A stretch of DNA of 49,448 bases, counting the filler, from Jimgerdemannia flammicorona (Eukaryota), in NCBI GenBank assembly GCA_003990765.1. It is 2 parts of 2 records of this genome, joined end to end, with 100 filler letters (N's around TTAATTAATTAA, not from the genome) between each part and the next. Parts side by side here need not be neighbours in the genome. Positions count along the whole stretch, not along the records: positions 1 to 24,676 come from RBNJ01000942.1; positions 24,777 to 49,448 come from RBNJ01000943.1. The stretch is one strand, 5' to 3'. The position numbers were made by a program, and so were the translations under genes. Every line of letters begins with the position of its first letter. Within the stretch, counting starts at the first letter, position 1. The notes beneath the pieces were generated by a model. It was not told where the DNA came from and made no database searches. It saw only the letters and a program-made list of their open reading frames with translations. Below, piece after piece: positions 7,131 to 47,723 of the stretch.

Positions 7131-7131
7131 C

Positions 7132-7593
7132 ATGGCTAACCAGAGGAGTACTGCCTCAGCTCTCAAGATCACTAGTGCTGCACAGTGAGCTATAGAAAGA
7201 CAATAGTGTACCACTGAACTGCCTGCCATAGAGGAATCCTTTAACAGTATCCAGAGCATAGTCCAGACACACCTGTCATGAATTTCACACTTCAAAGCCT
7301 ACCAGAACCGAACTGAGTTTCAAGAATACTTCAAACTGGGACAACTACTGAATTTGCAGCCAGAGATGGGAAAAGAAGACTGGATTAGAGATTGCCAGCT
7401 TTCCCATGCTCAGATCATGATTGCCAAATGAATCAACAAGTTGTTCAAAGATAACGAGCCAGCCTTAGCCCACTTTTGAAGAGTAGTTCTAGAAGATTTC
7501 AGATATATCAAAAGATATTACTGGGAGAACGTAATGACACAAATTGCATAGTACAAGAAGATACAAATCATAGAAGCATGGGAGTTTGAGTAA
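7132..7593 (+). pseudogene. Accessory ORF of A between integrase and PPT (~153 aa, unknown function)
   Basis: One frame with no indels: MANQRSTASALKITSAAQ*AIERQ*CTTELP...RTEFQEYFKLGQLLNLQPEMGKEDWIRDCQLSHAQIMIAK*INKLFKDNEPALAHF*RVVLEDFRYIK. Internal stops are 4 TGA and 2 TAG, each one transition away from a sense codon. Confidence 0.7.
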
Positions 7594-7624
7594 ATAGGAT
7601 GTTTCAGGGATGAATCACCTATTT

Positions 7625-7634
7625 AGGAGGAAGT
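7625..7634 (+). promoter_or_regulatory. Polypurine tract of A
   Basis: aggaggaagt immediately before the 3' LTR. Confidence 0.8.
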
Positions 7635-8124
7635 TGTGATGGTTGATCTGAATTAGTAACACAAATTAGGGGAATAAGACATTTGATCACAGTACCTAAA
7701 TCCGATTTCTAAATATAGTATAGTGTAGATAGCAGTTATTTCACAAATGTTAAAGTTTTTACAAATGTTAAACTATTCACAGATGTTAAACTCTTTGATG
7801 ATTGTTAAAGATTTAACAGATATCAAGGATTTAACACTTGTAAAAGCAATGACTCATATATAGGAAACATAGTCATAACTTAACCATCTTATAGCTAGCA
7901 AAACTTGTATAAATAACCTAGTATCTTAGAGTAAATAAAGCCTCAGATCGAAATAGTTCAAAAGCAAAGAGATAGCAAAGGAACTAGTAAGCCTGTGGGC
8001 AGATATACTTCGAACTCACCCACCCTCTCCTATAACTCAAAGGACTCTGTGAGAGTCAGAATGGTCAAGTTTTCAGATACAGAAATCTGATGTACTTTTA
8101 AGAGTAAGCATCTGCTATGTTACA
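7635..8124 (+). repeat. 3' LTR of A (490 bp)
   Basis: Direct repeat of 1371-1861. Confidence 0.95.
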
Positions 8125-9239
8125 ATGTATAAAAGTATATAAGCTAGTATTAATAAACAACTCTCCTCTCTCTCCTTTTCTCTACTCTTTTAAGTATTTT
8201 ACAATAAAATATTATGAGCCTCATTAGCAAAAGCAGATAACAAAGATACTCCTCTAATATATATATTATACTATATATATATCAAACCTAACAGATATAT
8301 TAAGTATAAGCCTACCAAGTAGTATAAGTAGAATGAGATCTAAAATAGATACTGGTAGTATAAGTATATCTAATACAATAGTTATAACTATGATTATTCC
8401 TGCAATAGTATCAACAATAATAAAGAGAATTATTCTTATCTTTAATAGTAAGGATTATACTATATAGATATACTATATAAAGTATCTCTTAGAAGAATGT
8501 GATCTGGAGAACTGCTGGAAGTTACAAATATAAATAATAAGATATAATACTATAAAAATTATAGAGTACTAAGAAAGATTATATTTATTCTTTCAAACAT
8601 ACAAATAAAACTTACTATAAATGCTATAATAGTGAATAAAGCCTGGAAGATCTTATACAATTATCATTAATAAGTATTTACATTAAATAGATTTCACCTA
8701 AAAATACAACTATTTAATCTCTAAATGAAGTCTAAGAAGAGTATCTAGGACTATACCAACTATATCAATAAGCTGATAAATTAAGTAAATTCTCTTTCTA
8801 TACTGGTAGATACTATCAAGAATAAAGACAAGGTTCTAGCCCTTATGTATAGTCTTCCTAAGATATATAATATGGTTATTACTACTATGAGAGAATCTAG
8901 TAAACTATTGAACTATAAGCATATCATTATGAGTCTTTTAAATAAGAAAATGAGGCTGGGTGGCAATAACAATAATAAAGATAATGAGAAAGCCTTCTAT
9001 AAAGCACATAGATGAGACAAAGATAAGCTGAATAAAGGATAAGAGTAAAAGCAGTATAATAGTCAGTACAATGGTCAATAAGCCAAATTTAATAATAAAT
9101 ACTTCTACTGTAATAAGTAAGTAAGACTGCAATTGAAAGAAAAAGAAAAAAAGCAGTCAAGGGTAGGTAAATATAGTAGATACTAATAGCAATAAAAGTA
9201 GCAAAGATCTATTCTTTACAGAAGCAGTAACCTATCTAT

Positions 9240-10857
9240 TGTAACAGTAACTCTAGAATAATGATATCAGTATAGGAGATAGTCTTTTCTTGCAAGCCAC
9301 CAGATTGGAGCACAAGAAGATCATATGGTATACAAGATAAGCAATTATAACCAACTGTGAGTCATTGTGACCACAGTATAGGCATCTTGAGAAATATAAA
9401 AGAATGATCAAGAAACCACAGTAGCAGCAACTTAATAAGATCTATCAATTCCAAAATAGCTCAAAGACTTACTACAAATAAAATGCCTGCTGCTCACCAA
9501 ACCTCAAAGTTAAGGAACCACCAAGATACCTCAGTCAAAGAAAGGATATTTCAAGACATTAGAAGAGCCATGAGGACCTGTATAAGAAGGATTCCTAGTA
9601 TTAACCTAGGTACTACAGATTCTTATTACTATATCCTCTACCACTATGAAATGGAAATAAGGATCACCATTGCTCCTGAATGTCTCCAAATGTGGTAGGA
9701 GTATGAAATAGGAAATCTCCTCTACTGGGAGTTCCTACAGGCTAGCCCTCAAGAGTTACAAGATACCACTCCTATAGATATATACAGCTAAGAAGATCTA
9801 TCAGATCTTCAGGCATGCACTATGGTCAATTCCCAACTTGGAGTATATTAGAGTCTCAGACTTCAGAGATCTATCAGCCTGCTGTATTAATGCACTAGAA
9901 GTTAGAGTGGCTACAGAAGCCCAGTCCACTATCACTCTCAATAGTAATGAAGTAGAAGACTTCTGGTATTCCATCCTCTAGGACAACCCAGACCAATTTC
10001 TGCAAAGATTGATCTCAGTATTCCAAGGTCCAAGTATCTAGGTTAGATCTCTCCAAGACCCCACATTTGTCCCCTATTTTATGGAAGAGAACCTTATAGA
10101 TTGGAGAGCTCCCAATTTTTCTGCTGAACATAATGATATTATTAGCAATGATGTCATTCTGCATAATATATATAAAACATATGATCTATATAATAATAAT
10201 GAGATGGACAAAATATTTGCAGACCTCATCTCCTCAAAGACATCCTGACCTCAGATAAGGATAAAGCTTCTATAGTCCTGAACATTTTGCTCTAAAGTCT
10301 CTTGATTATACTGAATTATACCAGCACTCTTTTCCTATATAACAGCTGTTCCTCTATCAGTATTCTGATGTGACTCAGAATTATTCCAGCACTCTTTTCC
10401 TGTGTAACAGCTGTTTCTCCACTGGCATTCTGATATGACTCAGAATTATTCCAGCACTATTTTCCTATACTACCAAAATTATATCAATATCCTGAACCTG
10501 TGCAACCATCAGTATCAATACTGGAACTTAGTAGTTTTCTATATTCTGGTATTTTATTTTAGTTATTGGAATTTATATTTAGCTTTATATCTTAGCAATC
10601 ATTGAATTATATTTTGTATAAATACCCCTCTTATTTCCTCTAAAATAAAGTTAGTTCCTCTCAGTACAATATATACAATTCCTTACAAGTAATCTAAGAG
10701 ATAACAAGACAGTTTAAAGATAAGAAGTTTGAGGACTATAAGACCTTGGGAAGGCACTCCAATAAGAACTTACTTATAACAAACTTGAGTTAGTCTAAGA
10801 GATATATCTTGAAGAGAATCTGATGTATTTGAAGGACTCAGAAACTACTATGTGACA
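9240..10857 (+). repeat. 5' LTR of B1 (1618 bp), containing a decayed ORF at 9483-10295
   Basis: tgtaacag...tgtgaca; repeated at 16537, 20972, 36480, 38897 and 46142. Confidence 0.93.
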
Positions 10858-10983
10858 ACTTGGTACCCATTGGCTGGTAATTCAAGATGAATCCCTCACT
10901 TTCAAGCTGAAAAATGAACAACTACCACAACAACTACCCTGACTACAAGAGTCATCCCTGCAAGAATTTAAGATAAGATAGAA

Positions 10984-13900
10984 ATATATCTCTCTACATT
11001 CTATAGATATACTACTGAAGAGTCAATCCTGACCTTCATTGAAGACTTTGAACAATTTGCTGCTGTACAAGTTCTTGGTGTGGATGCACAATTGGCTCTT
11101 CTACCTGTCAGCCTCAGAGGACCTACCAGAGACAAGTTCAATATAGTCACTATTACTAGTAATAGTGCAGCCAAACTTGCCAATATAAAGGCCTTACTCA
11201 GAATAATATACTATACTGAAGAGATCAAGCAAGCTCTCAAAGATCAACTCAATACTATCTGTCAGAGACTTAGTGAAGATCCCAACTTATTTTATATCTG
11301 AATCTGTCACTAGATTATCTTAGCTGGCTATGATGATGCCCTCAAGGAATAAATAGCAGATTCAACCTTCCTCAAAGAAGTTCACTCTGAAATTGCCCTA
11401 GCAATCTGGTCTACTCTAGCTATACTAACTCTTGATCAGAAAGTAGTCTTTGTACAGAGATATTAGACTGCCAGACACTCTGCCAAATACTTAATGGAGA
11501 AAATAACTGATATCAAGATAGAGCTATCAAAGCCAACTAGTATCATATCTGCTATAGTTGTAAACAGACAACTATCCCCATCTACCCCCAAGGTAGCCAA
11601 AGCTGACCCAGTGGAGGAACTTACCAAGTAGTTCACCAAGATGACTGCATACCTTGGTGATGTTGTTAGAGAAGTCCAAAGTACCAATAGGAGACCAGTG
11701 TAGAGATTTGCAGCTGCTATAGAATAATGTAATATTACATACTTCAGATATAGAGAAAAAGGCCACTACATATGCAAAGAGCTGCATGACCAAAATAAGA
11801 TACAAAGCCCAACTAAGCAATGCTAGTAGAACCAGAGAACAAATCAATATAGTAGTCATCAAGGAGATTGATGATACTGATAATGAAGAATACTATGAGG
11901 AGCTCAAATTCTACCCTGCTACTGAAGGTACCAGAACTAGGTCCAAGCCCTAAGACAATAAGAGCAATAGCAAGCCAGTTGGAAGATCAAAGAAGACAGC
12001 TATTACTATCTAAAGTAAGATCCAATCTGAGGAGATTGATCAAGATATGGAGTTAGATGAAGCTACTCACCAAATCATTGAAGACACTACTCTAGTCTCA
12101 GGAGAAAGCAAAAGTAAGAAGGAACAGAAGCTGTGTAAGACCAAGATCCATCAGTATGATATCTACAAGGATCTCAAGGAACAGAAGATCAATGCTACTT
12201 TTGGACAGCTAGCTAAAGTCCCTGCCTTCAAACAGCAGTTGAGAGTAAAACTTGCAACTACTGCCAAAAATCAAGAGTACAAGATTGTAGAAGCTCACAA
12301 TGCACAAGAAGAATCCAAAGACTCAGACAAAAAATCTGAAGACCAGTACAAAACATCAGCCTATACTCTATATCAGATTAAAGATTGTATCTTTGATGCC
12401 ATCATTGATATTGGTGCTGGAGAATGTCTCATGAGTAAGAAGACAATTGACTGTCTAGGCTGGGACATTGAAGAGTCTACCAAGATGGTCTATGTTACAA
12501 TAGATAGTATACAAACTACCCCCCTTGGCAAAATCTGAGAAGTCTCTATTAAGATAGGAGGAGCCACCATTCCAGTAGATGTGATTGTTACAAGCACCAC
12601 CAACTATGACATTCTTGTTAGCAATCAATGACTTCATAAGGCCAAGGCCATTAGTGATTCCAATGCCCAGAAGATGCAGATCAACTATAGAGAAAGAAAG
12701 GTACAAGTCTCTATCAATATCTATAAAGGAGTTCTATCAGATATAGAGGAAGGAGATGAGGAGGACACAGAAGTCTTCATATACTCAGTGAATAAGAACA
12801 AGAACAAGATACCCAAGCTCACAGATGAGCAGTGGTACAACAAGATCATCAATGGCTATGCTCCTCAAGAAAGATGTCTCCATAGTACTAGGATGTACTG
12901 CTCTGAATACCTGAATAACTGCTGGTCCTGTATCAGTGAAGTCAGAAAAATCCACCAATAGAAATATAAGCAAGAAGCTGCCAAAGTAAAAAGGAAAGTC
13001 AAAAAAGATGACCAGCCCCCCAAGCTTCAAGCTGACAGTAATGATGAGGAGGAATAAGAACCAGATATCACCCTTAAGGTCAAGAAGTTCTATCCCAAAG
13101 CCAAGATCCCAGAATATAAGACCAAATAATAGACCTTGCTAGCATTCAAGATGCTACTCTTGAACCACAGACCACTACCCTACTTGGCATTGAAATTGGA
13201 GTCAAGTTGCCAGAGAACCATGTTAGAATTATCAAGACCAGGAGCAGTCTGGCCAAAAGTGAAATCTCAGTTAAAGGAGGAGTAATTGACCCTAATTACA
13301 CTGATGAGATCTTCCTCATAGTTAGGAATCACAACCCCACTACCCCATTCAAGGTCAAGAAGCATGACAGGATTGGCCAGATACTGATCTATGAAATCAA
13401 GAAGCCTAAGATCACTGAAGCCATTAAACTCATCAAGACCAAAAGAGGAGAACAAGGCTTTGAATCTACTGGAAGAGGAACCTATGCCACCATCAAGATT
13501 ACTAAACTTGAGCATAAGAAAGACAAGAACAATAACAAGCACACATACCATTGGAGAAAACTTTCCCCTAGAAGAACAACTTCACAAGATCTTGCACCAG
13601 AATGAAAGAGTACTTACTACAGACTTTAGAGATATCCATAATCAAGAACCCAAGTACTACTATGAAGTTAACACTAGTGACACCAAACCCATCTACCAGA
13701 AAGCCAGACCCATAACATCTGCCTATAGAGAATGGCTGCAAGCAGAACTCAAGAAAATAGAAGAAGCTGGAATTATCAAGTAAGCTATCAGTCCCTGGGC
13801 TTCACCCATTGTCCTTGCCCTGAAGAAAAGAAGCAAGCCTGGAGAGTTTACACTAGACTCTGTATTGACTACAGAAAGCTTAATATAATTACTAAGGAGG

Positions 13901-16225
13901 ATAGACAACTCTTGCCAAATATTCAAGAAATCCTTACCACTCTTGGAAGCAAAGCCAAATAATATACTATCTTAGATCTGTTCTCAGACTTCTATCAGAT
14001 TGGTCTCACTCAAGATATCAGTGAGAAATCAGCCTTCATCACACCTGATGCCACCTATATCTACCTACAAATACTATTTGAAATGTGCAATACCCTAGCA
14101 AGTTTTTAGTAATTGATGAACAGAGTCTTCAGTAATGAGATTGGAAAATGGCTCTTTGTCTATGTTGATGATGTGATCATCTTCAGCAATACTATATGGG
14201 AATATATCAATCACATCAAGTTAGCCCTCAAGAAGCTCAAGGAGCATGACCTCTACATTAAGCCCAAGAAATGTAAGTTTGTGGCTCAGGAAATTGCCTA
14301 CCTAGGACACCTCATCAACTAGACTGGAATCCACACAGACCTCATAAAAATCAAGGCTATTGTAGTCTACCTAAGATCCAGAATAACTACAGAAGTCCAT
14401 GCCTTTCTTGGACTGGCCTCCTACTACAGAAGATTCATTAAAAGATACTCTAACATTACAGTACCTATCTATGAGCTACTGAAGAAAGAGACTAAATTTG
14501 AATGGACCAAGGAATACCAAGAAATCTTCAATGAACTCAAGACCAGATTGACCCAAGCACCTATCCTCAGAAGACCAGATTGAAACCTAGAATTCATCCT
14601 ACAGACAGATGCAAGTGCTATAGAACTTAGAGCAGTCCTAGCTCAGAAGAAAGATAGATATAAATATGTCATCTCCTATACAAGCTGAGATACTCACAGA
14701 GTAGAACAGAACTATGAGTCATGTAAGCTCAAATACTTAGCAATAGTTTAGGCAATAGACAAGTTCTACTACTATCTAGCTAGGAAATACTTCACTATTC
14801 AAATAGACTATTCTGCTCTTGCCTAGCTATTCCACACTCTGAACCCCAAAGGAATATATACCAGATGGATCTACAGACTGCAAGAGTATGACTATACTAT
14901 CAAGTACTGCTCAGGAAGAATTAATACCAATGCTGATATACTCTCAAGGATACCCTGAAATACCCCCATCAAGACTATTCAACATTAATAAGAAGTTATA
15001 CTATGGATTAATCAGCTATCTTAGGCAGTAGCACCTTGAACTCTAGACAATCACCATCATCAACTGGACTTAGAAATAGTTTGAACTAGACAACACTATA
15101 CTCAGAAAAGGAGAAAAGCTAGTAATATCTGAATATAAGAAGTATTAAGTAATGAAGGAAGTATATGAGCAAGGACACTTAGGAGGAATCAATATATATA
15201 ACAAGGTAAGAAGAACTATGTGGTGGCCCAAGATAAAAGAAGACCTGCACCAATTTGTCAAAGGGTGTGATAAGTACTAAAAACAGAAACAAGATCAATA
15301 AGACCAGGTACCCAGGTTATCAAAAATTGAGCCTATCTCCTTCCACCACATTGTAATAGATATTATTGAGCTACTACTAGTAATACTATTAGAAAACCAC
15401 TATATTATAGTTATTGTAAATCTCTTTACCAAATAGATAGAAGTAAGAGTATTACAAGAAGCTAATGCCCTCTCTATAGCTGACTTCCTATACCAAGAAA
15501 TCATCTGTCACTATAAGACACTGAAGCAAATCATAACAGACTACAGTACAGAATTTGTCAATGGATTCTATGAGATAATATGTATATCAGAAATACAAGA
15601 TCCAGTACATCAAGACCACTTTATATCACTTTCAAGGAAATGGACAGACAGAGAGAACCAACAAGACCCTCAAGAACATTCTGGCAAAAATCTCAGAGAT
15701 ATACAAGAATTGGGATAACTACCTCCCAACTGCCCTCTCTATCCTACAAGATATATAGTCACAGAGCACACACTTTACCCTAAGAGAACTACTCTTCAGA
15801 GAAGAAGATTCTGATAGAACCTCAGCCACAAATCTAGACCTAACTTGGAGATAGATTGATGCAGAAATCTGGAGACTATATCAAATCAGGAATAAGGCTG
15901 AAGATTATGTTATCAAGTTACAAGTACTGACAAGGAAGAATACAGAAAAGAATCACAAGACCCTAGAACCCATCCAAATCAGAGAAAAGGTCCTACTATA
16001 TTAAAATATAGTAGAAGTCTCATAGTCATAAAAACTGGAGCCCAAATAAGAAGGACTCTTCTATATGTAAGATATTAAGGGAACTATCTTCTGGCTTAGA
16101 AAAATCTCAGAGACTATACTGCCTACTATAGTATACAGGAACAGACTCAAGAAGTATTATGAACCTATATAAGAGAAGCAAAACATGATGACCACTCATA
16201 AGGTTCTAGTCCATGAATCATAACA
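10984..16225 (+). pseudogene. gag-pol of B1 (Gag, PR, Cys module, dUTPase, RT, RNase H, IN)
   Basis: AIIDIGAG protease; KTRSSLA/GGVIDPNY/RGEQGFESTG dUTPase; LCIDYRKLN; YVDD at 14161. The start ATG has decayed to ATA (intact in B3 at 40597). End approximate. Confidence 0.92.
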
Positions 16226-16536
16226 GCATGTTCCATAACCAGCAGACTATCTGTCTGAACCATTCTCTAAGGGATACCATACTAGCAACTACTCATCTAT
16301 GAGACTTTTGAAGCCAGAGGAGTTTGAACCATCAACTGATTGATCAAGATCAGAATCAGGCCCTTACTCTATATGAAGGGAGTGACTCTTCACCATTATA
16401 CCAAAATATATAGGGAAGATGCTAGCCCATAAACACCACTTTTTAACCCCTTATCAGAGGTTTTGGGATCAGCAAATTTTTCAGGACTGGATCAATGAAT
16501 AAGGATACTCAAGAAGATCCTTATTTAGGAGAAAGA

Positions 16537-18166
16537 TATAACAGTGACCCTAGAATGATGACATTAGTACAAGAGACAGCCTTTCCTCACAAGCTACTAG
16601 ATTAGAGTACAAGAAGATCATACAGCATATAAGATAAGTAATTATGACCAACTGTGAGTCATTGTGACTACAGTACAGACATCTTGAGGAATATAAAAGA
16701 AGAATCAAGGAACCACAGTAGCAGCAACTCAATAAGACCCACTAATCCCAAAATAGCTCAAAGACTTACCATAAATAAAATATCTGCTACTTACCAAACC
16801 TCAAGGTCAAGAAACTACCAAGGCACCTTAGTTGAAGAAAGGATATTCTAAGACATCAGAAGAGGTATGAGGACCTGTACAAGAAGGACTCCTAGTATTA
16901 ACCTGGGTACTGCAGATTCTTATCATTTTATTCTCTATCACTGTGAAATGGAAACAAGGATCACCATTACTACTGAATACCTTCAAATATAGCAGGAGTA
17001 TAAAATAGAAAACCTCCTCTGCCGGGAGTTCCCACAGGCCAGCCTTTAAGAGTTATAAGATGCCACTCCTATAGATATATATGAAACAAGGACAGCTAAG
17101 AAGATCCATCAGATCTTCAGGTATATACCATGGTTGATTCTCAACTTGGAGTATATTAGAGTCTCAGACTTCAGAGATCTGTCAGCCTGCTATATCAATG
17201 CACTAGAAGCCAGGGTGGTTACAGAAGCCCAGTCCACTATTACCCTCAATAGTGATAAAGTAGAAAACTTCTAGCATCCCATCTTTCAGGACAACCTAGA
17301 CCAATTTTTGCAAGGATTGATCTCAGTATTCCAAGATCCAAGCATCCAGATTAGATCTCTCCAAGACCTTACATTTGTCTCCTATTTCATGGAAGAGAAC
17401 CTCATAAATTAGAGAGCCCCTGATTTTTCTGTTAAATATGATGACATCATCAGTGATGACATCATCCTATATAATATATGCAAAATGTATAACCTACATG
17501 ACAATGATGAGATAGATGAAATATTTGTGGACTTCATCTCCTTCAAAGATATCTTGATCTTGGACAAGGATGAAGTCCCTATAGTCTTGAACATTTTGCT
17601 CTAAAGTCCCTTGATTATACTGAATTATACTAGCACTCTTTTTCTATAAAATAGCTATTCCTCTATTAGCATTCTGATGTGACTCAGAATTATTCCAGCA
17701 CTCTTTTCCTATATAACAGCTATTCCTCCACCAGCATTCTGATGTGACTCAGAATTATTCCAGTACTATTTACTTATACTACTGAAATTATATCAGTATT
17801 TTGAATCTATACAACTATCAGTGCTAATACTGGAACTTAGCAGTTTTTTATATCTTGGTATTTTATTTTAGTTATTGGAATTTATATTTAGCTTTTTATC
17901 TTAGCAACCATTGAATTATATTTTGTATAAATACCCCTCTTATTTTCTCTAAAATAAAGTCAGTTCCTCTTAGTATAATATATATAATTCCTTACAAGCA
18001 ATCTAAGAGATAACAAGACAGTTTAAAGATAAGAAGTTTGAGGACTATAAGACCTTAGGAAGGCACTCCAATAAGAACTTACTTATAACAAACTTGAGTT
18101 AGTCTAAGAGATATACCTTGAAGAGAATCTGATATATTTGAAGGACTCAGTAACCACTATATGATA
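16537..18166 (+). repeat. 3' LTR of B1 (1630 bp), containing a decayed ORF at 16780-17604
   Basis: Direct repeat of 9240-10857; termini decayed to tataac...atgata. Confidence 0.93.
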
Positions 18167-19032: not shown

Positions 19033-19078
19033 AGAAAAATAGATAATATAATTATCTTCAATAAGATAGCTTAGGAAT

Positions 19079-24660: not shown

Positions 24661-24676
24661 ACTTTTTTTTTTTTTT

Positions 24677-31657: not shown

Positions 31658-31668
31658 CACTGCTACCA
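31658..31668 (-). promoter_or_regulatory. PBS of C (tRNA-iMet type)
   Basis: Minus strand ...cttaca act TGGTAGCAGtg. Confidence 0.8.
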
Positions 31669-31671
31669 AGT

Positions 31672-34340: not shown

Positions 34341-34344
34341 GTCC

Positions 34345-37300
34345 AGACTGGCCTCCTACTATAGAAGATTTATCAAAGGATACTCCAATATTGCAGCACC
34401 TATCTATGAGCTACTGAAGAAGGAGATCAAGTTTAAATGAACTATAAAATATTAAGAAAACTTCAATGAACTCAAGACCAAGTTGACCCAAGTATCCATT
34501 CTCAAAAGATCTAATTGGAATCTAGAGTTCATCCTGCAGACAGATACAAGTACTATAGAACTTAGAGTAGTATTAGCTCAGAAGAAAGATAGACATAAAT
34601 ATGTTATCTCCTATGTAAGCTGAGATATCCATGGAGCAGAACAGAACTATGAGTCATGTAAGCTTAAATGTTTAGCAATAGTCTAAGCAGTAGACAAGTT
34701 TCACTACTATCTAGTCAGAAAATATTTTACTATTCAAACAGACCATTCTACTCTTATCTGGCTATTCCACACTTTGAATCTTAAAGAAATATATATCAGA
34801 TAGATCTACAGACTGTAAGAGTATAACTATACTATCAAATATCACTCAAGAAGAACCAATTCCAATACTGATATACTTTCAAGAATACCCTAAAATATCT
34901 CCATCAAGACTCTTTAACATGAATAAGAAGCTATACTATGGATTAATTAGCTATCTTGGGCAGTAGAAGATGTCCAACTATCTTGAACCCTGGACTATCA
35001 CTATTATTAACTAAACTTGAAAATAATTCAAACTAAACAATACTATACTTAGAAAAAGAGAAAAACTCATCATATCTAAATATAAAAAGTATTAAGTAAT
35101 AAAGGAAGTATACAAACAAGAATACTTAGGAGAAATCAATATATATAATAAGGTAAAAAGAACTATATAGTAGCCTAAGATAGAAGAAGACCTGTATCAA
35201 TTTGTCAAAGAGTATGATAAGTACTAAAAACAGAAACAAGATCAGCAAAACTGAGTATCTAAATCAAATCTATCTCCTTCTACTACATTGCAATAGATAT
35301 CATTGGATCACTACTAGTAACTCTATCAGGAAATTATTATATTATAGTTATTGTAGATCTCTTTACTAAATAGATAGAAGCAGGAGCATTACAAGAAGCC
35401 AATACTCTCTCTATTGCTGACTTTCTATATTGAGAAATCATCTACTACTACAAGATACTAAGAAAAATCACCATAGACTACAGCATAGAATTTATTAATA
35501 GATTCCATGAGATAATGTATCAGAAATATAAGATTTAGCATATCAAGACTACTGTATATCACTCTCAAGAAAATAGATAGATAGAAAGAACAAACAAGAT
35601 CCTCAAGAACATTCTAGCCAAAATCTCAGACATATATGAGAATTGGTATAACTACCTCCCAACTACTCTCTCCATCCTATGAGATATATGGTTACAGAGT
35701 ATACACTTTATCCCAAAAAAACTGCTCTTTGGAGAAGAAGATTCTGATAGAATCTCAGCTACAAATCTAGATCTAACTTGGCAACAGATTGACTCAGAAA
35801 TCCAGAGACTATACCAAATTAGGAAGAAGGTAGAAGATTATATCATCAAGTCACAAGTACTAATAAGAAAGAATATAGAAAAGAATCACAAGACCCTAGA
35901 ACTTATTCAAATCAGAGAAAAGTTCTTACTATATTAAAATATAGTAGAAGTCTCATAGTCATGAAAACTGGAGCCCAAATGAAAAATACCCTTCTATATA
36001 CAAGATATATATCAAGAGAACTATCTTCAGGCTTAAAAAACTCTCAGGAACTATACTGTCTACTATAGTACACAGGAACAGACTTAAAAAATACTATAAA
36101 TCTATATAAGAAAAGTAAAATATAATAACTACTCATAAGATTCTAGTCTACAAATCATAATAGTATATTCTGTAACTAGCAGACAATCTGTCTGGACCAT
36201 TCTCTAAGGGATATAGTACTAGCAACTACTCATCTATAAGACTTTCAAAGCTAGAGAAGTTTGAACTATTAACTGATTAGTCAAGATCAGAATCTGATCT
36301 TTACTCTATATAAAGAGAGCTACTCTTCACTATTATATCAAAATATATAAGGAAGATACCAGCCAATAAACACTACTTTTTAATCCTCTATCAGAGGTTA
36401 TGAGATCAGAAAAAATTTTCAGACTAGACTAATAAATAAAGATATTCAAAAGAAGATTTTTATTCAGGAGAAAGATATATGTAATAGTGATCTCAGAATA
36501 GTGATATCATCATAGGAGATAGTCTTTCATTAGATTAGAGTATAAGAAGATTATATAGTATGACTCACCCAGACTATAAGATAAGTAATGATGATCAACC
36601 TTGAGTCATAATGACCACAAGATAGATATCTCAAGGAATATAAAAGAAGAATCAGAAAACTGCAGTAGCAGTAACTCCAATAAGACTTACAAAAATCTGA
36701 AACAATTCAAAAGACTTACTATAAATAAAATGTCTACCACTTACCAAACTGTAAGGTCCAGGAACTACCAAGGCTTCTCAGTCCAAGAAAGGATGTTCCA
36801 AGACAGCAGGAGAGCTATAAGGATCTGCACTAGAAGGATCTCTAGCCTTAACTTTAGCACTGATAACTCTTATCACTTTATCTTCTACTGCTATAAAATG
36901 GAGACAAGAATCACTACTACTATCAAATATCTCTGGATGTGGTAAGAATACAAATAGGTAGTGCTCTGAATGAGTCAATCTGGATGGATTTGAATCAACC
37001 ATTGTTTTGATTTCTAAATTAGATAATTAAATGTTTACATCAATAACTCAATGAATAATTATCCAAATTTAATGATCTTAATATCATTTGAAAGCCCTTA
37101 ATAAGGCCTTTCTAATGATACTAAGAACATTAAAATCAGATTATACATTGCTGAGATATTAGGGAAAATGTTCTATTTGATAAAATTTCCAAAATTGGCA
37201 AATCAAATAATTTCCAAAATTGGCGATTCAGACATTTTCCTTCATAACTCAGCAATGCATGATCTGATTTCAATGTTCCTGGTGTTATTAGATAGGCCTT

Positions 37301-38601
37301 ATTAAGGGCTTTCAAATAACATCAAGATCATCAGATTTGGATGATTATTCATTGAGTTATTGATGTAAATATTTAATTGTCTAATTTGGAAATCAAAACA
37401 ATTATTGATTCAAATCCATCTGGATGGGATTTGAATCCTATCTGAGTTGATCCAATCCAGATTAAATTGACTCATTAGGAGCACTATAAATAGAAAACCT
37501 CCTCTACTGGAAATTTCCTCAGACTAGTCTCTAAGAGATATATATAAGATACTATCTCAATAGATATATAGAAAAGGTAGCCAAAAAGATCCATCAGGTC
37601 TTCAGGCATATATCTTGATCAATTCCTAACTTGGAGTATATCAAAGTCTCAGACTTCAAAAAATTGTTAGTCTATTATATAGATGCATTAGAAGTCATAG
37701 TGACTATAGAAACCTAATCTACTATTACTCTCAAAAGTGATAAGATAGAAGAGTTCTGAAATCTCATCCTCAAGAACAATCCAGATCAATTTCTGTAAGG
37801 ATTAATCTCAGTATTTCAAGGCCCCAGTATCCAGATCAGACCCTCTCAAGATCCCACCTTTGTAGAAGAAAATATTATAGATTGAAGAGCTCTTGATCTT
37901 CTTGCTACTACTGCTGAATATGATGACATCATTATCAATAATATCATTCTGCTAATCAATATATATAAAATGAATATAATACTTACAGAAATGTTTACTG
38001 ATCTTATTTTTTTCAAAGATATCCCCATCTCTGACCTCTAGTCTTAATGATAACAATAAAGATGAAGCTTTGAGAATTTTGAACATTCTACTCTAATTTG
38101 TTTATATAACTATTTATTTGAACACTTGAATATTCTGGCACTCTGACTTTATACAACTGTCAGAAATTATTTCAGCATTCTGATCTTATACAACTAATTA
38201 TATGAATACTCAAATTTGTACTTATAATCTGACGTTTTCTATATTCAAATATCTTATTTGGTTATTGGATTTTATATTTAGCTTTATATCTTAGTAACTA
38301 TTGAATTATATTTCATATAAATACCCCTCTCATTTTCTTTGAAATAAAGTCAGTATTAAAACACTCAAGCATTCAAATATCCAACTACTCAAGAGCATAA
38401 AAGTTCCAGTCCTCTACTCAATTCTATGCAAGTAAATCTAAGAGATAACAGAATAGTTTAAAGATAAGAAGTTTGAGAATTATAAAACCTTGGAAAGATA
38501 CTTCAATAGAACTTACTTATAAGAAACTTATAGTTAGTCTAAGAGATATATCTTAAAGAGAATCTAACATACTTAGAAAACTCAGTGCCCACAACATAAT
38601 A
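34345..38601 (+). mobile_element. 5'-truncated family B copy B2 (end of RT, RNase H, IN, 3' LTR 36480-38601)
   Basis: Collinear with B1 from ~14411; PPT aggagaaaga at ~36466; LTR ORF 36730-38096 interrupted by a MITE. Confidence 0.9.
36959..37486. mobile_element. hAT-like foldback MITE (528 bp) inserted in the B2 LTR ORF
   Basis: TIRs tagtgctctgaatgagtcaat...attgactcattaggagcacta; degenerate 8-bp TSD caaatagg / taaataga; arms ~36985-37170 and ~37233-37420 are inverted copies. Confidence 0.88.
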
Positions 38602-38896
38602 GTAGTTATATTATAAATTTTATTATAACTTATTCAAACTTCTTAATAGAAATTAACAAAGACTAGAGTAAACTGATAAATACTTAATTATTAGACTTAT
38701 TATACTAGCAAAAATTACAACTAGTAATATAGTTCTTGATTTTCTTAATTATATTAAGTCAGCAGTATTTTCTCAATTCTAAGGTAACTAGTAAGTAAAG
38801 AGTTATAATATTCTTACAATATCTTATAGCAGAGTTTTATATTGTTTAATAGATAGACTATGTCTTAATAATAGATCAAGTTCTTCTTAATGATAT

Positions 38897-40470
38897 TATA
38901 ATGGTGACCTCAGAGTAATGATATTAGTATGAAAGATAGTCTTTTCTTATAAGTTACCAAATTAGAGTACAGGAAAATTATATAGTATGACTCATCCAGG
39001 CTACAAGATGAGCAATAATGACTAATCATGAGTTATTGTGACTACAAGATAGATATCTTGAGAAATATAAAAGAAGAATCAAGAAACTACAGTAGTAGCA
39101 ATCTAAACAAAGCTCACAGAAATAGTTCTAAAGACTTACTATAAATAAAATGCCTGCTACTTGCCAAATCTCAAGGTTCAGGAATCACCAAGGCCTCTCA
39201 GTCTAGGATAAGATATTCCAAGATATCAGAAGAGTTATGGAGACCTATACAAGAAGGACTCCTAGTGCCAATCTGAGTACTGGTGACCTCTATCATTATA
39301 TCCTCTACCATTATAAAATAGAAACAAGGATCACTATTGCTACTAGATATCTCTGGATATGGCAGGAGTATGAAATAGAAAATCTCCTCTACTAAGAGTT
39401 CCCTTAGACTAGTCTCCAGGAGATTCAAGATGTTATCTCTATAGATATATATGAAATAAGAACAGCAAAGAAGATTCATCAGGTCTTCCAGCATATACTA
39501 TGGTCAACTCTCAACTTAGAGTATACTAGAATCTCAGACTTCAAGGAACTGTCCACCTGCTACACCAATGCACTAGAGACTATAGTGGCTATAGAGGCTC
39601 AGTCTACTATCACTCTTAATAGTAATAAAGTAGAAAACTTCTGGTATCTCATCCTCCAGGACAATCCAGATCAATTTATATAGAGATTGATCTCAGTATT
39701 TCAAGGTCCCAGCATCCAGATTAGACCTCCCCAAGACTTCACATTTGTTTCTTATTTTGTAAAAGAGAATGTCATAGCTTGGAAAGCTCCTGCTGCTGCC
39801 AAACATGATGACATCATCTGTGATGATATCATCCCATGTGACATATATGAAATGCATGACCTATATGATGAGATAGATGAAATATTTGTAGACCTCATCT
39901 TTTTTGAAGACATTCTGTCTCTGACCTCTGGCCTTGATAGTGATAAAGATGAAGCCTCTATGGTTCTGAACTTTCTGCTTTAAGTTCTTGGTAACACCAG
40001 ATTCTATCAGCATCCTTTTCCTATATAACTATTATTCTTCTGGTATTCTGATCTTGTGTAACTCAAAATTCTTCTGGTATCCTTTTTCTGTACCACTGAA
40101 ATTCTACTAGTATCCTAAACTTAAACAATCATTTGTTCAGACAACTATAGTTTTCTATGTTCCAGTATTTTATTTAGTTATTGAAATTTATATTTAGCTT
40201 TATAACTTAGCAACTATTGAATTATATTTTGTATAAATATTCCTCTTATTTTCTTTAAAATAAAGTCAGTTCCAGTTCACTTATACTCAATTCTATATAA
40301 GCAATCTAAGAGATAATAAGACAGTTTAAAGATAAGAAGTTTGAGGACTATAAGATCTTAGAAAGACACTCCAATACAAACTTGCTTATAACAAACTTGT
40401 AGTTAGTCTAAGAGATATACCTTGAAGAGAATCTGATATATTTGAAGAACTCAGTGACCACTATATGATA
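38897..40470 (+). repeat. 5' LTR of B3, containing a decayed ORF at 39150-39983
   Basis: Direct repeat of 46142-47723; the ATG at 39150 is in frame with ORF 39687-39983. Confidence 0.92.
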
Positions 40471-40596
40471 ACTTAGTACCTATTGGCTGGTGATTCAAGA
40501 TGAATCTCTCACTTTCAAGCTGAAAAACTAATAACCCCTACAATAACTATTCTGACTACAAGAGTCATCCCTGCAAGAATTCAAGATAAGATAGAA

Positions 40597-43500
40597 ATGT
40601 ATCCCCCTACATTCTATGGATATACTACTGAAGAGTCAATCCTGACCTTTATTAAAGACTTTGAACAATTTGTCACCATACAAGCTCTTGGTATAGATGC
40701 ACTATTGGCCCTTCTATCTGTCAGCCTCAGAGGACCTGCCAGAGATAAGTTCAATATAGTCATTATTACTGATGCTAGTATTGTCAAACTTACCAATATA
40801 AAGAATTTCTTCAGAACTATATATTATACTGAATAGATCAAGCAAGCTCTCAAGGATCAACTCAACACTATCTGCCAGAGACTTAGTGAAGATCCCAACT
40901 TATTCTATACCTGAATCTGCCACCAGATTATCTTGGCTGGCTATAATGATGCTCTCAAAAAACAAATAGTGGATTCAACCTTTCTCAAAGGAGTTTACCC
41001 TGAAATTGCTCTAGCAATCCAGTCTACCCCAGTTGCTCTGACTCTTGATCAGAAAGTATTCTTTGTATAGAGATATTAGACTATCATATACCCTACCAAA
41101 CACTCAATAGAGAAAATAACTGGTATCAAGATAGAGCTATCAAAGCTAACCAGTATCATATCTGCTATAGTTGTAAATAGACAACTATTCCCACCTATCT
41201 CCAAGACAGCCAAAGCTGACCCAGTGGAGGAACTTACCAAGTAGTTTGCCAAGATGACTGTACACCTTAGTAATATTGTTTGAGAAGTCCAAAGTGCCAG
41301 CAGGAGATCAGTACAGAGATTTGTAGTTACTATAGAAGAATGCAATATTACATGCTTCAGATGTAGAGAAGAAGGCCACTATGCAAAGAGTCATATAACT
41401 GAAATAAGATACAAAGCCCAATCAAGCAATGCTACCAGAACTAGAGAACAAATCAATACAGTAGTCATTAAGGAGATTGGTGATACTGATGATGAAGAAT
41501 ACTATGAGAAGTCTGAATTCTACTCTATTATTAAAGATGCCAGAACCTGGTCCAAGCCCTATAATAAGAAGGGCAATAGCAAGCCAGTTGGAAGACCAAA
41601 GAAGATCTCAGCTATCACTATTCAAAGCAAGGCCCAACCTAAGGAGATTGATTAAGATATGGAATTAGATAAAGCTACCTACCAAATCATTAAAGATACT
41701 ACTCTAGTCTCAGAAGAAAGTGAAAGCAAGAAAGAACAAAAGCTGTGTAAGACCAAGATCCATCAGTATGATATCTATAAGGACCTCAAGAAACAGAAGG
41801 TCAATGCTATCTTTGAACAACTAGTCAAGATCCCTGTCTTCAGACAGCAGTTGAGAGTAGAACTTACAACTACTGAGTATAAGATTGTAGAAGCTCACAA
41901 TGCATAAGAAGAATCTGAAGACTCAGACAAAGAATCTAAAGATCAGTACAAAACATCAGCCAATACTCTATGTCAGATTGAAGATTGTATCTTTGATGCC
42001 ATCATTGATACTAGTATTAGAGAATACCTCATAAGTAAGAAGGCAATTGACTGCCTAGGCTAGGACATTGAAGAGTCCACTAAGATGGTCTATATCACAG
42101 CAGATAGTATATAAACTACCCCCCTAGGCAAGATCTGAGAAGTTTCCATCAAGATAAGAGGAGCTATCATCCCAGTAGACATGATTGTTACAAGTACTAC
42201 CAACTATGATATCCTCATTGGCAACCAATAGCTTCATAAGGCCAAAGCTATTATTGACCTCAATGCTAAAAAGATACAGATCAACTATAGAGGAAGAAAG
42301 GTATGAGTCTCTATCAATATCCACAAAAGAGTACTATCAGACATAGAGAAAGGAGATAAAGAAGACACAGAAGTCTTCATACACTCAGTGTATAAGAACA
42401 AGAGCAAGACACCCAAGCTCACAGATGAGCAGTAGTACAACAAGATCATCAATAGCTATGCCCCTTAAGAAAGATGTCCCTATGGTACTAGGATATACTA
42501 CTCTAAACACCTGAATGACTGCTGGTTCTATATCAGTGAAGTTAGGAAAATCTGCCAACAAAAGTATAAGCAAGAAGCTGCTAAAGCAAAAAGAGAAGCC
42601 AAAGAAGATGACCAGTCCCCAGAGCTTTAAGCTGATAGTGATGATGATGAGGAATAAGAACCAGACATCACTCTTAAGGTCAAGAAGTTTTATTCCAAAG
42701 TCAAGATCTCAGAATATAAGACTGAAGGAGCTATAGGAATGAACCTTACTAGCATTCAAGATGCTACTCTCAAACTACAGACCACCACTTTACTTGATAC
42801 TGGAATTGGAGCCAAGTTGCTAGAGAACTATACCAGAATCATCAAGACCAGGAGTAGTCTGGCCAAAAGAGAAATCTCAGTTAAAGGAGGAGTAATAGAC
42901 CCTAATTATACTGGTGAGATCTTCCTCATAATTAGGAATCACAACTCCACCACCCCATTCAAAGTCAAGAAGTATAATAGGATTGGCCAGATACTGATCT
43001 ATAAAGTCAAGAAGTCCAAGATCACTGAATCCATTAAACTCATCAAGACTAAGAGAGGAGAATGAGGCTTTAGATCTACTGGAAGAGAAGTCTATACTAT
43101 TACCAAGATTACTGAACTCAAGCACAAGAAAGATGAGGATCAGAACAAGCACACATGTATTATTGGAGAAAACTTTTCCCTAAAAGAACAACTTCTCAAG
43201 ATTCTGTACCAGAATGAAGGAGTACTTACCACAGACTTCAGAGACATCTACAATCAAGAACCCAAGTACTACTATGAAGTTAATACTGGCAATACCAAGT
43301 CCATCTACCAGAAAGCCAGACCTATACCACCTGCCTACAGAAAATGGCTGTAAGCAGAACTCAAGAAAATGAAAGAAGCTGGAATTATTAAGCAAGCTAT
43401 CAGCCCCTGGGCTTCATCTATTATCCTTGCCCCAAAAAAAGGAAGCAAGCTTAGAGAGTTTGCCTCAAGACTCTGCATAGATTACAGAAAGCTCAATACA

Positions 43501-45830
43501 ATCACCAAGAAGGATAGGCAGCCCTTGCCAAATATTCAAGAAATCCTTACTACTCTTAGAAGTAAAGCCAAATACTACATCACCTTGAATCTGTTCTCAG
43601 GCTTCCATCAGATTGGTCTCACTTAAGATACCAGTGAGAAATCAGCCTTTATTACTTCTGATACCACTTATGTCTACCTGAAAATGCTATTTGGAATGTA
43701 CAATATCTCAGCAAGTTTTCAGTGAATAATAAACAGAGTCTTCAGCAATGAGATTGGAAAATGGCTCTTTGTCTATATTGATGATATGATCATCTTTAGC
43801 AATACTATATGAAAATATGTTAACTATATACAGCTAGCTCTCAAGAAGCTCAAGGAGCATAGCCTCTATATCAAACCCAAGAAGTGTAAGTTTGTAGCTC
43901 AGGAAATCATCTATCTAGGACACATCATCAATCAGACTGGAATTCACACAGACTTTATGAAGATTGAGACTATTGCAGCCTACCCAAGACCCAGAACAAT
44001 TATAGAAGTCTATACCTTCCTTGGACTAGCCTCTTACTATAGAAGATTCATCAAAGGATACTCAAACATTGTAGCATCTATTTATGAGCTACTGAAGAAG
44101 GAAATCAAATTTAAATGAACCAAGGAATGCCAAGAAACCTTCAATGAACTCAAGACTAGGTTGACCCAAGCACCCATCCTCAGAAGACCAGATTGGAATC
44201 TCAAGTTCATCCTGCAGACAGATGCAAGTACTATAGAACTTGGAGCAGTCCTAGCTTAGAAGAAATATGAATATGAATATGTCATCTCCTATATAAGCTA
44301 AGATACCCATGGAGCAAAATAGAACTATGAGTCATGTAAGCTCAAATTCTTAGCAGTAGTTTGAGTAGTAGACAAGTTTCACTACTACCTAGCTGGAAAA
44401 TACTTCACTATTCAAATAGACTATTCTGCTCTCACCTGGCTATTTCACACTCTGAACCCCAAAGGAATATATACCAGATGGATCTACAGGCTGCAAGAGT
44501 ATAACTGTACTATCAAGCATCACTCAGGAAGAACTAATGCCAATACTGGTACACTCTCAAGAACACCCCAAAATATCTCTATCAAGACTATTAAATATGA
44601 ATAAAGAGCTATACTATAGATTAATCAGCTACCTTGGGCAGCAGAAGATGCTCAACTATCTTAAATTCTGAACTATCACTATTATCAACCAGACTTGGAA
44701 ACAATTTGAACTAGACAATACTATACTCAGAAAAGGAGAAAAGCTTATAATACCTAAATACAAGAAGTATCAAGTAATAAAGGAAGTATATGAACAAGAA
44801 CACCTAAGAGGAACCAACATATATAACAAAGTAAAAAGAAACATATAGTGGCTCAAGATAGAAGACCTGTGCCAATTTATCAAAGAGTATAATAAGTACC
44901 AAAAACAGAAACAAGATAAGTAAGACCAGACATCTGGGTCCTCAAGAATTGAGTCTATCTCCTTCCACCACATCATAATAGATATTATTGGATCACTACC
45001 AGTAACACTATCAGGAAACCACTACATTATAGTTATCATAGACCTCTTTACTAAATAGATAGAAGCAGGAGCATTACAAGAAGTCAATATTCTCTCTATA
45101 GTTGACTTTCTGTACCAAGAAATCATCTGCCACTACAAGACACCAAAGCAAATCACCACAGACCATGATATAGAATTTGTCAATAGATTTCATGAGACAA
45201 TGTATCAGAAATACAGATTTAGTATATCAAGACTACTGCATACCACCCTCAAGAAAATGGACAGATAGAGAGAACCAATAAGACCCTCAAGAATATTCTG
45301 GTAAAGATCTCAGATATATATGACAATTGGGATAACTATCTCCCAACTGCCCTCTCTATCCTATAAGATATATGGTCACAGAGTATATACTTTATCCCAA
45401 GAGAACTGCTCTTCAGAGAAGAATATTCTAATGGAATCTCAGCCACAAATCTAAACCTAACATAGAGATGGATTGACTCAGAAATCCAGAGACTATACCA
45501 AATCAGGAAGAAGGCTGAAGATTATATCATTAAGTCACAAGCACTAATAGAAAGAATGCAGAAAAAAATCACAAGATCCTAGAACCTATCCAAATTGAAG
45601 AAAAGGTTCTACTATATTGAAATATAGTAGAAGTCTTATGGTCATAAAAACTGGAGCCCAAATGAGAAGGACCCTTCTATATACAAGATATTAAGAGAAC
45701 TATCTTCTGGCTTAGAAAACTCTCAAAGACTATACTGCCACAGGAACAGACTCAAGAAGTACCATGAATCTATATAAGAGAAGCAAAATATAATGACTGC
45801 CCATGAGGTTCTAGTCTATAAATTGTAACA
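40597..45830 (+). pseudogene. gag-pol of B3
   Basis: MYPPTFYGY start; dUTPase ~42675-43090 (GGVIDPNYTGEI); SPWASSI...LCIDYRKLN; YIDD ~43774; RNase H; IN. End approximate. Confidence 0.92.
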
Positions 45831-46141
45831 ACATGTCTCATGATCAGCAGGTAATCTGTCTGGACTATTCTCTAAGAGATATGGTACCAGTAACTACTCA
45901 TTCATGAAACTTTCAAAGCCAGAAGAGTTTGAACTATCAACTGATTGGTCAAGATCAGAATCAGGCCCTTACTCTATATGAAGGGAGTGACTCTTCACTA
46001 TCATACCAAAATACATAGAGAAGATACCAGTTCATAAATACCACTTTTCAACCCCCTGCTAGAGGTTATGAGATCAGCAAATTTTTTAGAACTGGACCAA
46101 TGAATAAGGATGTTCAAGAAGATTCTTATTCAGGAGAAAGA

Positions 46142-47723
46142 TGTAATGGTGACCTCAGAATAATGATATTAGCATAGAAGACAGTCTTTCTTCATAAGCC
46201 ACCAGATCAGAGCACAGGAAGATCATATGGCATAACTCATCCAGATTACAAGATGAGCAATGATGACCAACTATAAGTCATTGTGACCACAAGACAGACA
46301 TCTTGAAGAATATAAAAGAAGGATCAAGAAATGGTATTAGTAGTAATCTAAACAAAGCTCACAGAAATAGTTCTAAAGACTTACTACAAATAAAATGCCT
46401 GCTACTTGCCAAATCTTAAGGTCTAGAAACCACCAAGGTCTCTCAGTCTAAGATAGGATATTTCAAGATATTAGAAGAGCCATAGAGACCTGTACAAGAA
46501 GAACTCCTAGCATCAACCTGAGTACTGGTGATCCCTATCATTATATTCTCTACTATTGCAAAATGGAAACAAGAATCACCATTACTATTGAATACCTCTG
46601 GATGTGACAGAAGTATGAAATAGAAAACCTCCTCTACCAGAAGTTCTCTCAGGCCAGTCTTCAGGAGATTCAAGATGCTATTCTCATAGATATATATATA
46701 TGAAATAAGGATAGCAAAAAAGATTCATTAGGTCTTCTGGCATATACCATGGTCAATCTTTAACTTAGAGTACACTAGGATCTCAGACTTCAAGGAACTG
46801 TCCACCTGCCACATCAATGCACTGGAGGTCATAGTGGCCACAGAGGCTCAGTCCACTATTGCCCTCAATAGTGATAAAGTAGAAGACTTCTGATATCCCA
46901 TTCTCTAGGACAACCCAGATCAATTCATATAGAGATTGATCTCAGCATTTCAAGACCCTAACATCCAGGTTAGACCTCTCCAAGACCCCATATATATTTG
47001 TTTCTTATTTTGTAGAAGAGAATGTTATAGATTAGAAAGCCCTCACTGCTACTGAATATGATGACATCATCAGTGATAACATTATCCTACATGATATATA
47101 TGAAATATATGATCTATGTGATGAGATAAACAAAATGTTCATAGACCTTATCTCCTTTGAAGACATCCTGTCTCCAACCTCTGACCTTGATAGTGATAAA
47201 GATGAAGCCCCCATGGTCCTGAACTTTCTGTTTTAAGTTCTTAGTAATACCAGATTCTACCAGCATCCTTTTTCTGTATAACTGTCATTCTTCTGGTATT
47301 CTGATCTTACATAACTCAAAATTCTTCTAGTATCCTTTTTCTGTACCACTGAAATTCTATGGGTATCCTAAACTTGTACAACTATTTGTTCAGACAACTA
47401 TAGTTTTCTGTATTCCAGTATTTTATTTGGTTATTGAAATTTATATTTAGCTTTATAACTTAGCAATTATTAAATTATATTTTGTATAAATACCCCTCTT
47501 ATTTCCTTTGAAATAAAGTTAGTTCCAGTTCACTTATACTCAATTCTATACAAGCAATCTAAGAGATAACAAGATAGTTTAAAGATAAGAAGTTTGAGAA
47601 CTATAAGATCTTAGGAAGATACTCCAATAAGAACTTGCTTATAATAAACTTGTAGTTAGTCTAAGAGATATATCTTGAAGAGAATCTGATATATTTGAAG
47701 GACTCAGTGACCACTATATGATA
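46142..47723 (+). repeat. 3' LTR of B3, containing a decayed ORF at 46395-47236
   Basis: Direct repeat of 38897-40470. Confidence 0.92.

Follow-up and report, generated by a model that had tools for sequence, protein, structure and literature searches.

Extra genes in three lineages of dUTPase-bearing Ty3/Gypsy retrotransposons of the fungus Jimgerdemannia flammicorona, one of them located within the long terminal repeat

Parts of two records of the Jimgerdemannia flammicorona genome assembly GCA_003990765.1 (RBNJ01000942.1 and RBNJ01000943.1), joined end to end over 100 filler letters, make up the stretch of 49,448 nt that was analysed here (from here: the window). The window was resolved into nested long terminal repeat (LTR) retrotransposons by self-comparison and by Pfam scans of frames read through their stop codons. 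It contains three lineages of dUTPase-bearing Ty3/Gypsy retrotransposons, here called A, B and C, in a fungus with repeats mutated as if by RIP (repeat-induced point mutation). Each lineage carries an extra open reading frame (ORF), and a sequence-only reading had proposed that the three ORFs represent one accessory protein family in two genomic positions. We consider it fairly probable that all three lineages possess real extra genes, that those of A and B are orthologous and differ in their placement through a shift of the polypurine tract (PPT), and that the gene of C is separate and possibly related.

Element A (1369..8125, plus strand) is a non-chromoviral Ty3/Gypsy element with the Pfam domain order gag(CCHC)-protease (PR)-dUTPase-reverse transcriptase (RT)-RNaseH-integrase (INT), flanked by LTRs of 494 nt (1369-1862 and 7633-8125) that are 91% identical to each other. 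Its sister lineage B, with a nucleotide identity of 64-68% in gag-pol, is found on the same strand as two full copies, B1 (9242..18164, with 1.6-kb LTRs at 9242-10855 and 16539-18164) and B2 (38899..47724, LTRs at 38899-40471 and 46144-47724), as a third, partial copy consisting of the 3′ part of pol and an LTR (34346..38611, LTR at 36480-38611), and as a solo or orphaned LTR (20970..22540). Element C (24984..33741, minus strand) has LTRs of 221 nt (5′ LTR at 33521-33741, 3′ LTR at 24984-25203) that are 93% identical, and the domain order gag(CCHC)-dUTPase-PR-RT-RNaseH-INT-SH3-chromo. Between the paired LTRs of A and C, the Pfam domains PR, RVT_1, RT_RNaseH, Integrase_H2C2 and rve follow each other in the order of Ty3/Gypsy elements; in the pol of B, PR (weak), RVT_1, RT_RNaseH and Integrase_H2C2 were found in this order and rve was not matched. 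The chromodomain PF00385 was detected in C alone (E = 3e-16), together with SH3_Tf2-1, and Pfam gave no chromodomain match in A or B, in agreement with the earlier description of C as a chromovirus with a different domain order.

ORF A (7132..7593, plus strand) is located between pol and the PPT and comprises 153 codons, six of which are transition-derived stops. The ORF opens with an ATG 2 nt past the stop of pol (TAA, 7127-7129), in another frame than pol. The layout of the pol stop and the ORF A start (7127-7134, TAAcATG) is compatible with termination-reinitiation. The ORF ends 40 nt upstream of the 3′ LTR, and the PPT (AGGAGGAAG, ~7624-7632) is situated in between; with its PPT downstream, ORF A is internal to the element.

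ORF B lies within the LTR, about 240 nt from the LTR start, and is therefore present in six copies in the window, all on the plus strand. The copy described in the sequence-only reading belongs to the solo LTR (21214..22035; 273 codons, two internal stops). In B1, one copy is found in the 5′ LTR (9483..10295, frameshifted by an 11-nt deletion) and one in the 3′ LTR (16780..17604, beginning ~240 nt inside the LTR); the partial third copy contributes another (36730-38096), split by a ~529-bp insertion resembling a miniature inverted-repeat transposable element (MITE), and B2 contains two (39150-39983 and 46395-47236, the latter frameshifted). The start of the ORF is ~610 nt past the pol stop and beyond the PPT (AGGAGAAAG), which is located just before 16539, upstream of ORF B. 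With the PPT upstream of the ORF and both TATAAATA and AATAAAG downstream of it, B falls into the positional class of retroviral-type accessory genes encoded in the U3 (unique 3′) region of the LTR, between the PPT and the TATA and poly(A) signals, to which neither A nor C belongs.

ORF C (32347..33444, minus strand; 365 codons, two stops) is placed between the 5′ LTR and gag of element C. It starts 76 nt past the 5′ LTR, and in the genomic RNA no other long ORF precedes it. A stop-rich spacer of ~1.1 kb (31225..32346, minus strand), with ~17 stops in the gag-pol frame, separates it from the gag-pol frame (25828..31224, minus strand), which is open except for the stops that separate its ORFs and has its first gag Met in ...NNMANQQILDL. 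The peptides quoted in the sequence-only reading for the three ORFs were all recovered, in the same places and frames.

The differences within the LTR pairs of the window are to ~98% transitions, mostly CpA>TpA, and the mutation pattern is RIP-like. Within the ORF columns, transitions and other changes stand at 123 to 3 in the B1 LTR pair and at 127 to 2 in the B2 pair. CpG is nearly absent, with two instances in the B1 LTR pair and none in the B2 pair (both strands counted). Every in-frame stop examined in ORFs A, B and C is a single transition away from a sense codon, as had been supposed earlier. The six stops of ORF A are TGA or TAG at positions where intact relatives have R, W or Q, and both stops of ORF C correspond to R in its relative P0002.

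Stop-free relatives were found for all three ORFs, which argues that ORFs A, B and C are real genes. For ORF A, a word-seeded search yielded 10 such relatives with 65-78% identity, which were 10 of 10 matches at E ≤ 0.1; they begin (MAN...) and end (...EAWEFE) as ORF A does, and the family has 25 invariant columns at positions 35-85. Seven relatives with 59-77% identity were obtained for ORF B by the same kind of search, including a full-length protein of 271 aa (P0004), and here 72 invariant columns are concentrated at positions 142-271. For ORF C, 1.84 billion representatives were scanned in full with HMMER, and two true relatives emerged, both partial and stop-free: P0002 is 91% identical to ORF C residues 1-128, and P0001 is 64-65% identical to residues 115-364 and has the same C-terminal end. 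A third match, P0003 (E = 3.6e-5), is a repeat protein that matched one short stretch of C six times and was rejected as spurious. The suggestion that the motif resembles a large uncharacterised Glomeromycotina family was not borne out, since the scan for C gave these two relatives and the seven and 10 relatives of B and A, at 59-78% identity, are all close ones; the searches for A and B, being word-seeded, were less sensitive than the HMMER scan for C, and distant kin could be missed in them.

Conservation along the proteins is uneven, as folded domains would show. Between B1 and B2, fixed differences in ORF B are distributed 22/13/35 over codon positions 1/2/3. For ORF C, we inspected contigs of four runs, three of them from soil metagenomes and one from a coded organism, which span the 5′ LTR, ORF C, the spacer and the first part of gag; of the eight indel places listed, six lie in the spacer, two in the leader and none in the 1098 nt of ORF C. 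Several points weigh against taking the ORFs for genes under selection. Gene callers report open frames only, so that the intact relatives are an ascertained sample, and the signs of selection on ORFs A, B and C are indirect. Moreover, the post-insertion differences of the B2 LTR pair are also rich in third positions (34/34/61); part of the excess in B, itself modest, may hence stem from mutation context, which makes the skew weak evidence. ORFs A, B and C appear to be real, conserved genes without a known domain.

Six intact relatives did not match any Pfam family even at E ≤ 5, and neither did the three read-through ORFs. A sequence search of the PDB returned chance-level matches only (best E = 0.77 with the A+B profile and 0.14 with the C profile), and a search of the ESM Atlas with C and P0004 gave no usable match (feature scores ≤ 0.83, TM-scores ≤ 0.33). 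Among metagenome contigs searched with the C profile, none of 21 pattern matches was confirmed, and viral contigs searched with B, A and C queries gave no match. The only metagenome contig found with the B profile (L001) showed 30% identity seeded by the search pattern itself and is not a relative. The maximum Kyte-Doolittle hydropathy over 19 residues is 0.19 for A, 0.74 for B and 0.86 for C; these values reveal no transmembrane segment, in line with the earlier statement that an Env-like signal and a transmembrane segment are missing, and with no Pfam family matched either, the proteins are not Env-like. AlphaFold2 models reached a mean predicted local distance difference test score of 46.2 for B with the A+B alignment and 32.1 for C, too poor for a fold search. 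These low-confidence models of B and C predict helices around the motif, in the same order in both.

ORFs A and B are homologous members of one family, as judged by profile comparison, and appear to be orthologous accessory genes. The raw ORFs gave E = 0.023 over 33 aa in BLASTP, and hhalign with the mutated window copies alone gave E = 0.033; for A and C, profiles made from these copies gave noise only. When the profiles included the intact relatives, the hhalign value was E = 9.1e-5 over 103 columns, and the real score was reached by 0 of 130 column shuffles. HMMER comparisons in the two directions scored 13.2 and 9.9 bits, and 0 of 3000 residue shuffles reached either score. MAFFT found the same register independently, at ~20-24% identity. 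The two proteins (153 aa in A and 271 aa in B) share a core of ~100-130 residues that is predicted to be helical. The protein of ORF A is little more than this core. B has in addition an arginine-rich N-terminus (13 K/R and a net charge of +8 in residues 1-60) as well as a long tail of acidic character (~-25 in residues 121-270), its C-terminal half being strongly acidic. The C protein is acidic throughout and rich in Pro and Tyr. The charge profiles thus bear out the acidic tails that had been noticed in B and C.

The LTRs provide a second line of evidence on A and B and show the two genes to be syntenic. Over its whole 494 nt, the LTR of A can be aligned with the terminal ~494 nt at the 3′ end of the B LTR; positions 1-490 of the A LTR correspond to positions 70-563 after the ORF B stop, including TATAAATA and AATAAAG. 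For three of four B copies, 0 of 200 shuffles reached the alignment score; the copy B2_5 aligns more weakly to the A LTR, and 8 of 200 shuffles reached its score, which speaks against the match. A 65-nt tandem repeat (2.4 copies, 10313..10469, plus strand, recurring at 17622-17778) is situated in the B1 U3 between the ORF B stop and the TATA box, and it is with the end of this repeat that the A LTR start aligns. Other B copies carry fewer units of this repeat than B1. The PPTs of A and B are also alike (tatttAGGAGGAAG and ttatttAGGAGAAAG). Because the A LTR aligns to the 3′ part of the B LTR, both ORFs would have been located just upstream of the ancestral LTR start, and A and B appear to hold one and the same position in the RNA genome, after pol. 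The two genomic positions proposed earlier have therefore to be recounted: there are three in the DNA (between pol and PPT in A, in U3 in B, in the 5′ leader in C), and in the RNA A and B share one.

The cause of the two states of the gene in A and B is likely a shift of the primer site for plus-strand synthesis, which is the simplest reading of the different placement of the PPTs. The PPT that B uses is located upstream of the ORF, and one round of reverse transcription would make the ORF part of U3 and of both LTRs; such an upstream PPT explains why the LTRs are 1.6 kb long and why the window contains six copies of the ORF. A shift of the priming site could move the ORF into U3 or out of it within one replication cycle. 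The 370-nt spacer between pol and PPT of B did not contain a remnant of an A-like ORF in a profile search.

A possible fourth, heavily mutated remnant of a B-like ORF was found at 22604..22909 (plus strand), in sequence of 25% G+C. The A+B profile scores it with 11.7-12.2 bits (E ~0.003-0.004 for ~500 segments, bias 3.4), and it has no significant nucleotide similarity to the B LTR. We also considered 22541-23800 as a second truncated B LTR and rejected it for want of nucleotide support (score 427; null mean 402, maximum 445).

The sequence-only reading had united all three ORFs in one family. This stands for A and B, while the membership of C, with marginal hhalign values (0.05-0.16), is not established; we put the chance that the N-terminal ~110 residues of ORF C are a distant copy of the A/B core at slightly better than even. 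In raw BLASTP, A and C gave E = 0.19 over 40 aa, and B and C gave E = 31 at the register claimed earlier. With hhalign, C gave 0.16 when compared with A, 0.11 with B and 0.051 with A+B, in each case at that register, and the A-C, B-C and A+B-C comparisons all align best at Y.IG.LL ... IA.K...LF. The A+B HMMER profile scored 10.6 bits on C residues 1-150, which 0 of 3000 shuffles reached; for P0002 the score was 8.5 bits, and 3 of 3000 shuffles reached it. Over the A/B/C HMMER tests, the real score was reached by 0-13 of 3000 shuffles. As a control, 11 real gag-pol segments scored at most 3.7 bits. In a six-frame search of the window with the A+B profile, C was the best non-A/B match (E = 0.15) after the doubtful remnant at 22604-22909, and it is the best window match that is otherwise unexplained.

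From these results, we regard as evenly balanced the explanation that one mobile module occurs in all three lineages and was moved by recombination of co-packaged RNAs between the 3′ end of A/B and the 5′ leader of the chromovirus. A precedent comes from bdelloid rotifers, where dUTPase-bearing Gypsy-like elements carry varied third ORFs and ORF3 types are common to unrelated lineages of LTR retrotransposons (Rodriguez, Kenefick & Arkhipova 2017, PMC5408684). Other observations weigh against a relation of C to A and B. Once the search space is counted, no test is conventionally significant (hhalign 0.05-0.16; in-window E = 0.15), and the hhalign probabilities for C are ~1% or less, with 3 of 130 column shuffles reaching the real C score. 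As A and B are mutually related, their matches to C are not independent of each other, and the alignment was originally picked by eye. The reverse search, with the C-family profile, found A only at E = 2.8, as the fifth non-self match and at noise level. The C-terminal halves of B and C have no similarity, as 480 and 612 of 3000 shuffles reached the real score; a motif "PTF.P.YF" seen by eye in both proteins proved not to be significant. Finally, one of the 11 control segments reached 3 of 500 shuffles, from which it follows that the residue-shuffle null is somewhat lenient.

It is just short of an even chance, in our estimate, that ORF C was instead acquired independently, or arose de novo as a leader ORF, and that its likeness to A and B is the chance resemblance of helical sequences of similar composition. 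Beside the low hhalign probabilities and the column shuffles, this explanation draws on the position, length, charge and C-terminal region of C, all of which differ from A/B; it has to contend with the HMMER score of 10.6 bits, reached by none of the 3000 shuffles, and with the gag-pol controls, which did not exceed 3.7 bits.

With regard to function, the accessory proteins would act in trans for their own element. Without holding it to be probable, we tentatively favour a role as nuclear regulator of element expression that activates the LTR or controls the fate of the genomic RNA. The isoelectric point of the A core, 6.8, is unusual for a nucleic-acid binder and weighs against this. Next comes, with a rather low probability, a role as adaptor that blocks a host silencing factor. 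The most comprehensive version of this account seems to us unlikely; it would have one helical domain of ~100 residues move between the chromovirus, where it is a 5′-leader ORF, and the non-chromoviral dUTPase-Gypsy lineage, where it is a 3′ ORF and LTR-internal in one sublineage, and work in both as a trans-regulator, either an LTR activator or an antagonist of the defences of the fungal genome, such as silencing or RIP. As for expression, ORF A could be translated by reinitiation, as its ATG is only 2 nt past the pol stop; for ORF B, and likewise for the gag-pol of C, translation would call for an internal promoter or for an RNA that is spliced or subgenomic.

Improbable, too, is a factor of the Rev or CERV kind that exports or stabilises unspliced genomic RNA and does not activate transcription. 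The arginine-rich N-terminus of B and its hydrophobic, Leu-rich C-terminal end (...ILNFLL) would suit such a factor, and elements with a spliced mRNA for an extra ORF need one, as described for the Gypsy-type element Cer1 of Caenorhabditis elegans, whose accessory protein CERV has a demonstrated role in the export of genomic RNA (Sun et al. 2023, PMC10309623). However, A lacks both features, C is acidic throughout, and the Pfam and PDB searches gave no sequence similarity to any known family. A reading of the ORFs as a Pol tail, or as open frames without a function, is very improbable indeed: although the open frame of ORF A reaches upstream into the last part of pol and all six window copies of B are damaged, ORF A begins behind the pol TAA and in another frame, its relatives start at the same Met, ORF B begins ~610 nt past the pol stop and beyond the PPT, and intact relatives at 59-78% identity retain start and stop.

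The favoured reading, with real genes in all three lineages and a shifted PPT between A and B, can be compared with several known systems. Accessory genes set "complex" retroviruses apart from simple ones and are almost undescribed in fungal LTR retrotransposons. In mouse mammary tumour virus (sag) and in human and simian immunodeficiency viruses (nef), accessory genes lie in or overlap U3. ORF B resembles these in lying 3′ of pol and, within U3, downstream of the PPT, and its position there would have it copied into both LTRs, as are genes of the sag/nef type. It differs from them in that there is no sequence relation (no Pfam family), in that the host is a fungus, and in that the gene lies outside the LTR in the sister lineage A, from which it can be seen how the U3 arrangement may have arisen. 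The Ogre-type Ty3/Gypsy elements of plants have an ORF1 upstream of gag, and ORF C is like it by position only, between 5′ LTR and gag, in what is a fungal chromovirus. VANC proteins are anti-silencing proteins of the VANDAL transposons of Arabidopsis, which are DNA transposons; their likeness to A, B and C is an analogy of function only, a small transposon-encoded accessory protein possibly acting in trans for its own family. The VANC domain is presumably represented in Pfam, and no anti-silencing (VANC/DUF-type) domain was matched at E ≤ 5 in the six intact members.

The literature searched for descriptions of such ORFs offered only general precedents and nothing on the A/B/C family. The rotifer ORF3s resemble the present ORFs as extra ORFs on dUTPase-bearing Gypsy-like elements, and in that an ORF type recurs in unrelated retroelement lineages; they differ in that domains can be recognised in the rotifer ORF3s (Env-like, GDSL lipase, DEDDy exonuclease), which the fungal ORFs lack (PMC5408684), and in the window only the two sister lineages, A and B, have been shown to share their ORF. 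CERV is likewise a novel, lineage-restricted accessory protein of an LTR retrotransposon and acts in trans on its own RNA; its mRNA is spliced and a function has been demonstrated for it, whereas the fungal ORFs are known from sequence alone (PMC10309623). That fungal Gypsy elements normally encode nothing but gag-pol, as stated earlier, holds for the most part and is not absolute: some are drawn with an "add. ORF ... with unknown function", and the position of the dUTPase varies among them (Novikova et al. 2010, PMC2864245). By description, A, B and C resemble those additional ORFs as extra ORFs of fungal Gypsy elements, some of which bear a dUTPase (PMC2864245).

What the sister lineages A and B present is a conserved orphan gene in two states, internal in A and inside the LTR in B. 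They are a clear natural example of the way in which an LTR may incorporate a gene, and in which solo LTRs may come to carry one. If the ORF of the chromovirus is related, modules would have been exchanged between distant Gypsy lineages within a fungus. Should the protein turn out to counter silencing or RIP, the defence of fungal genomes would gain a participant of a new kind, and if it proves to be a trans-regulator module, it would be a fungal counterpart of the retroviral accessory genes.

Beside the main elements, the window holds further repeats. An inverted A-like piece at its left edge (54-1233) is ~70% identical to A 3986-5182. An older, heavily mutated A-like element occupies 18289-20311 and 23792-23904; its pol pieces are collinear with A 4694-5873 and 5880-6003, and ~3.5 kb containing the solo B LTR interrupt it. 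The MITE-like insertion in the LTR of the partial B copy (~36959-37487, ~529 bp) has terminal inverted repeats of ~22 nt, and a relative of it at 19160-19556 is similar in both orientations. An Rfam search of the whole window returned no family. Two N runs of 44 bases each (filler; 24677-24720 and 24733-24776) lie just outside the 3′ LTR of element C.

Metagenome runs from soil and from roots contain sequence of the element. Of element C there is a great abundance in the soil runs (queried with 31000-33800 in runs X1, X2, X3 and X5), and run X1 alone contains 4292 contigs at a likeness of at least 85%. The pieces of element C among the contigs listed are 112-469 nt long, as expected of a high-copy repeat. 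In an X5 contig, the terminal repeat of the MITE-like element is present as a loose end at 31770, and this family therefore appears to insert into element C in other samples as well.

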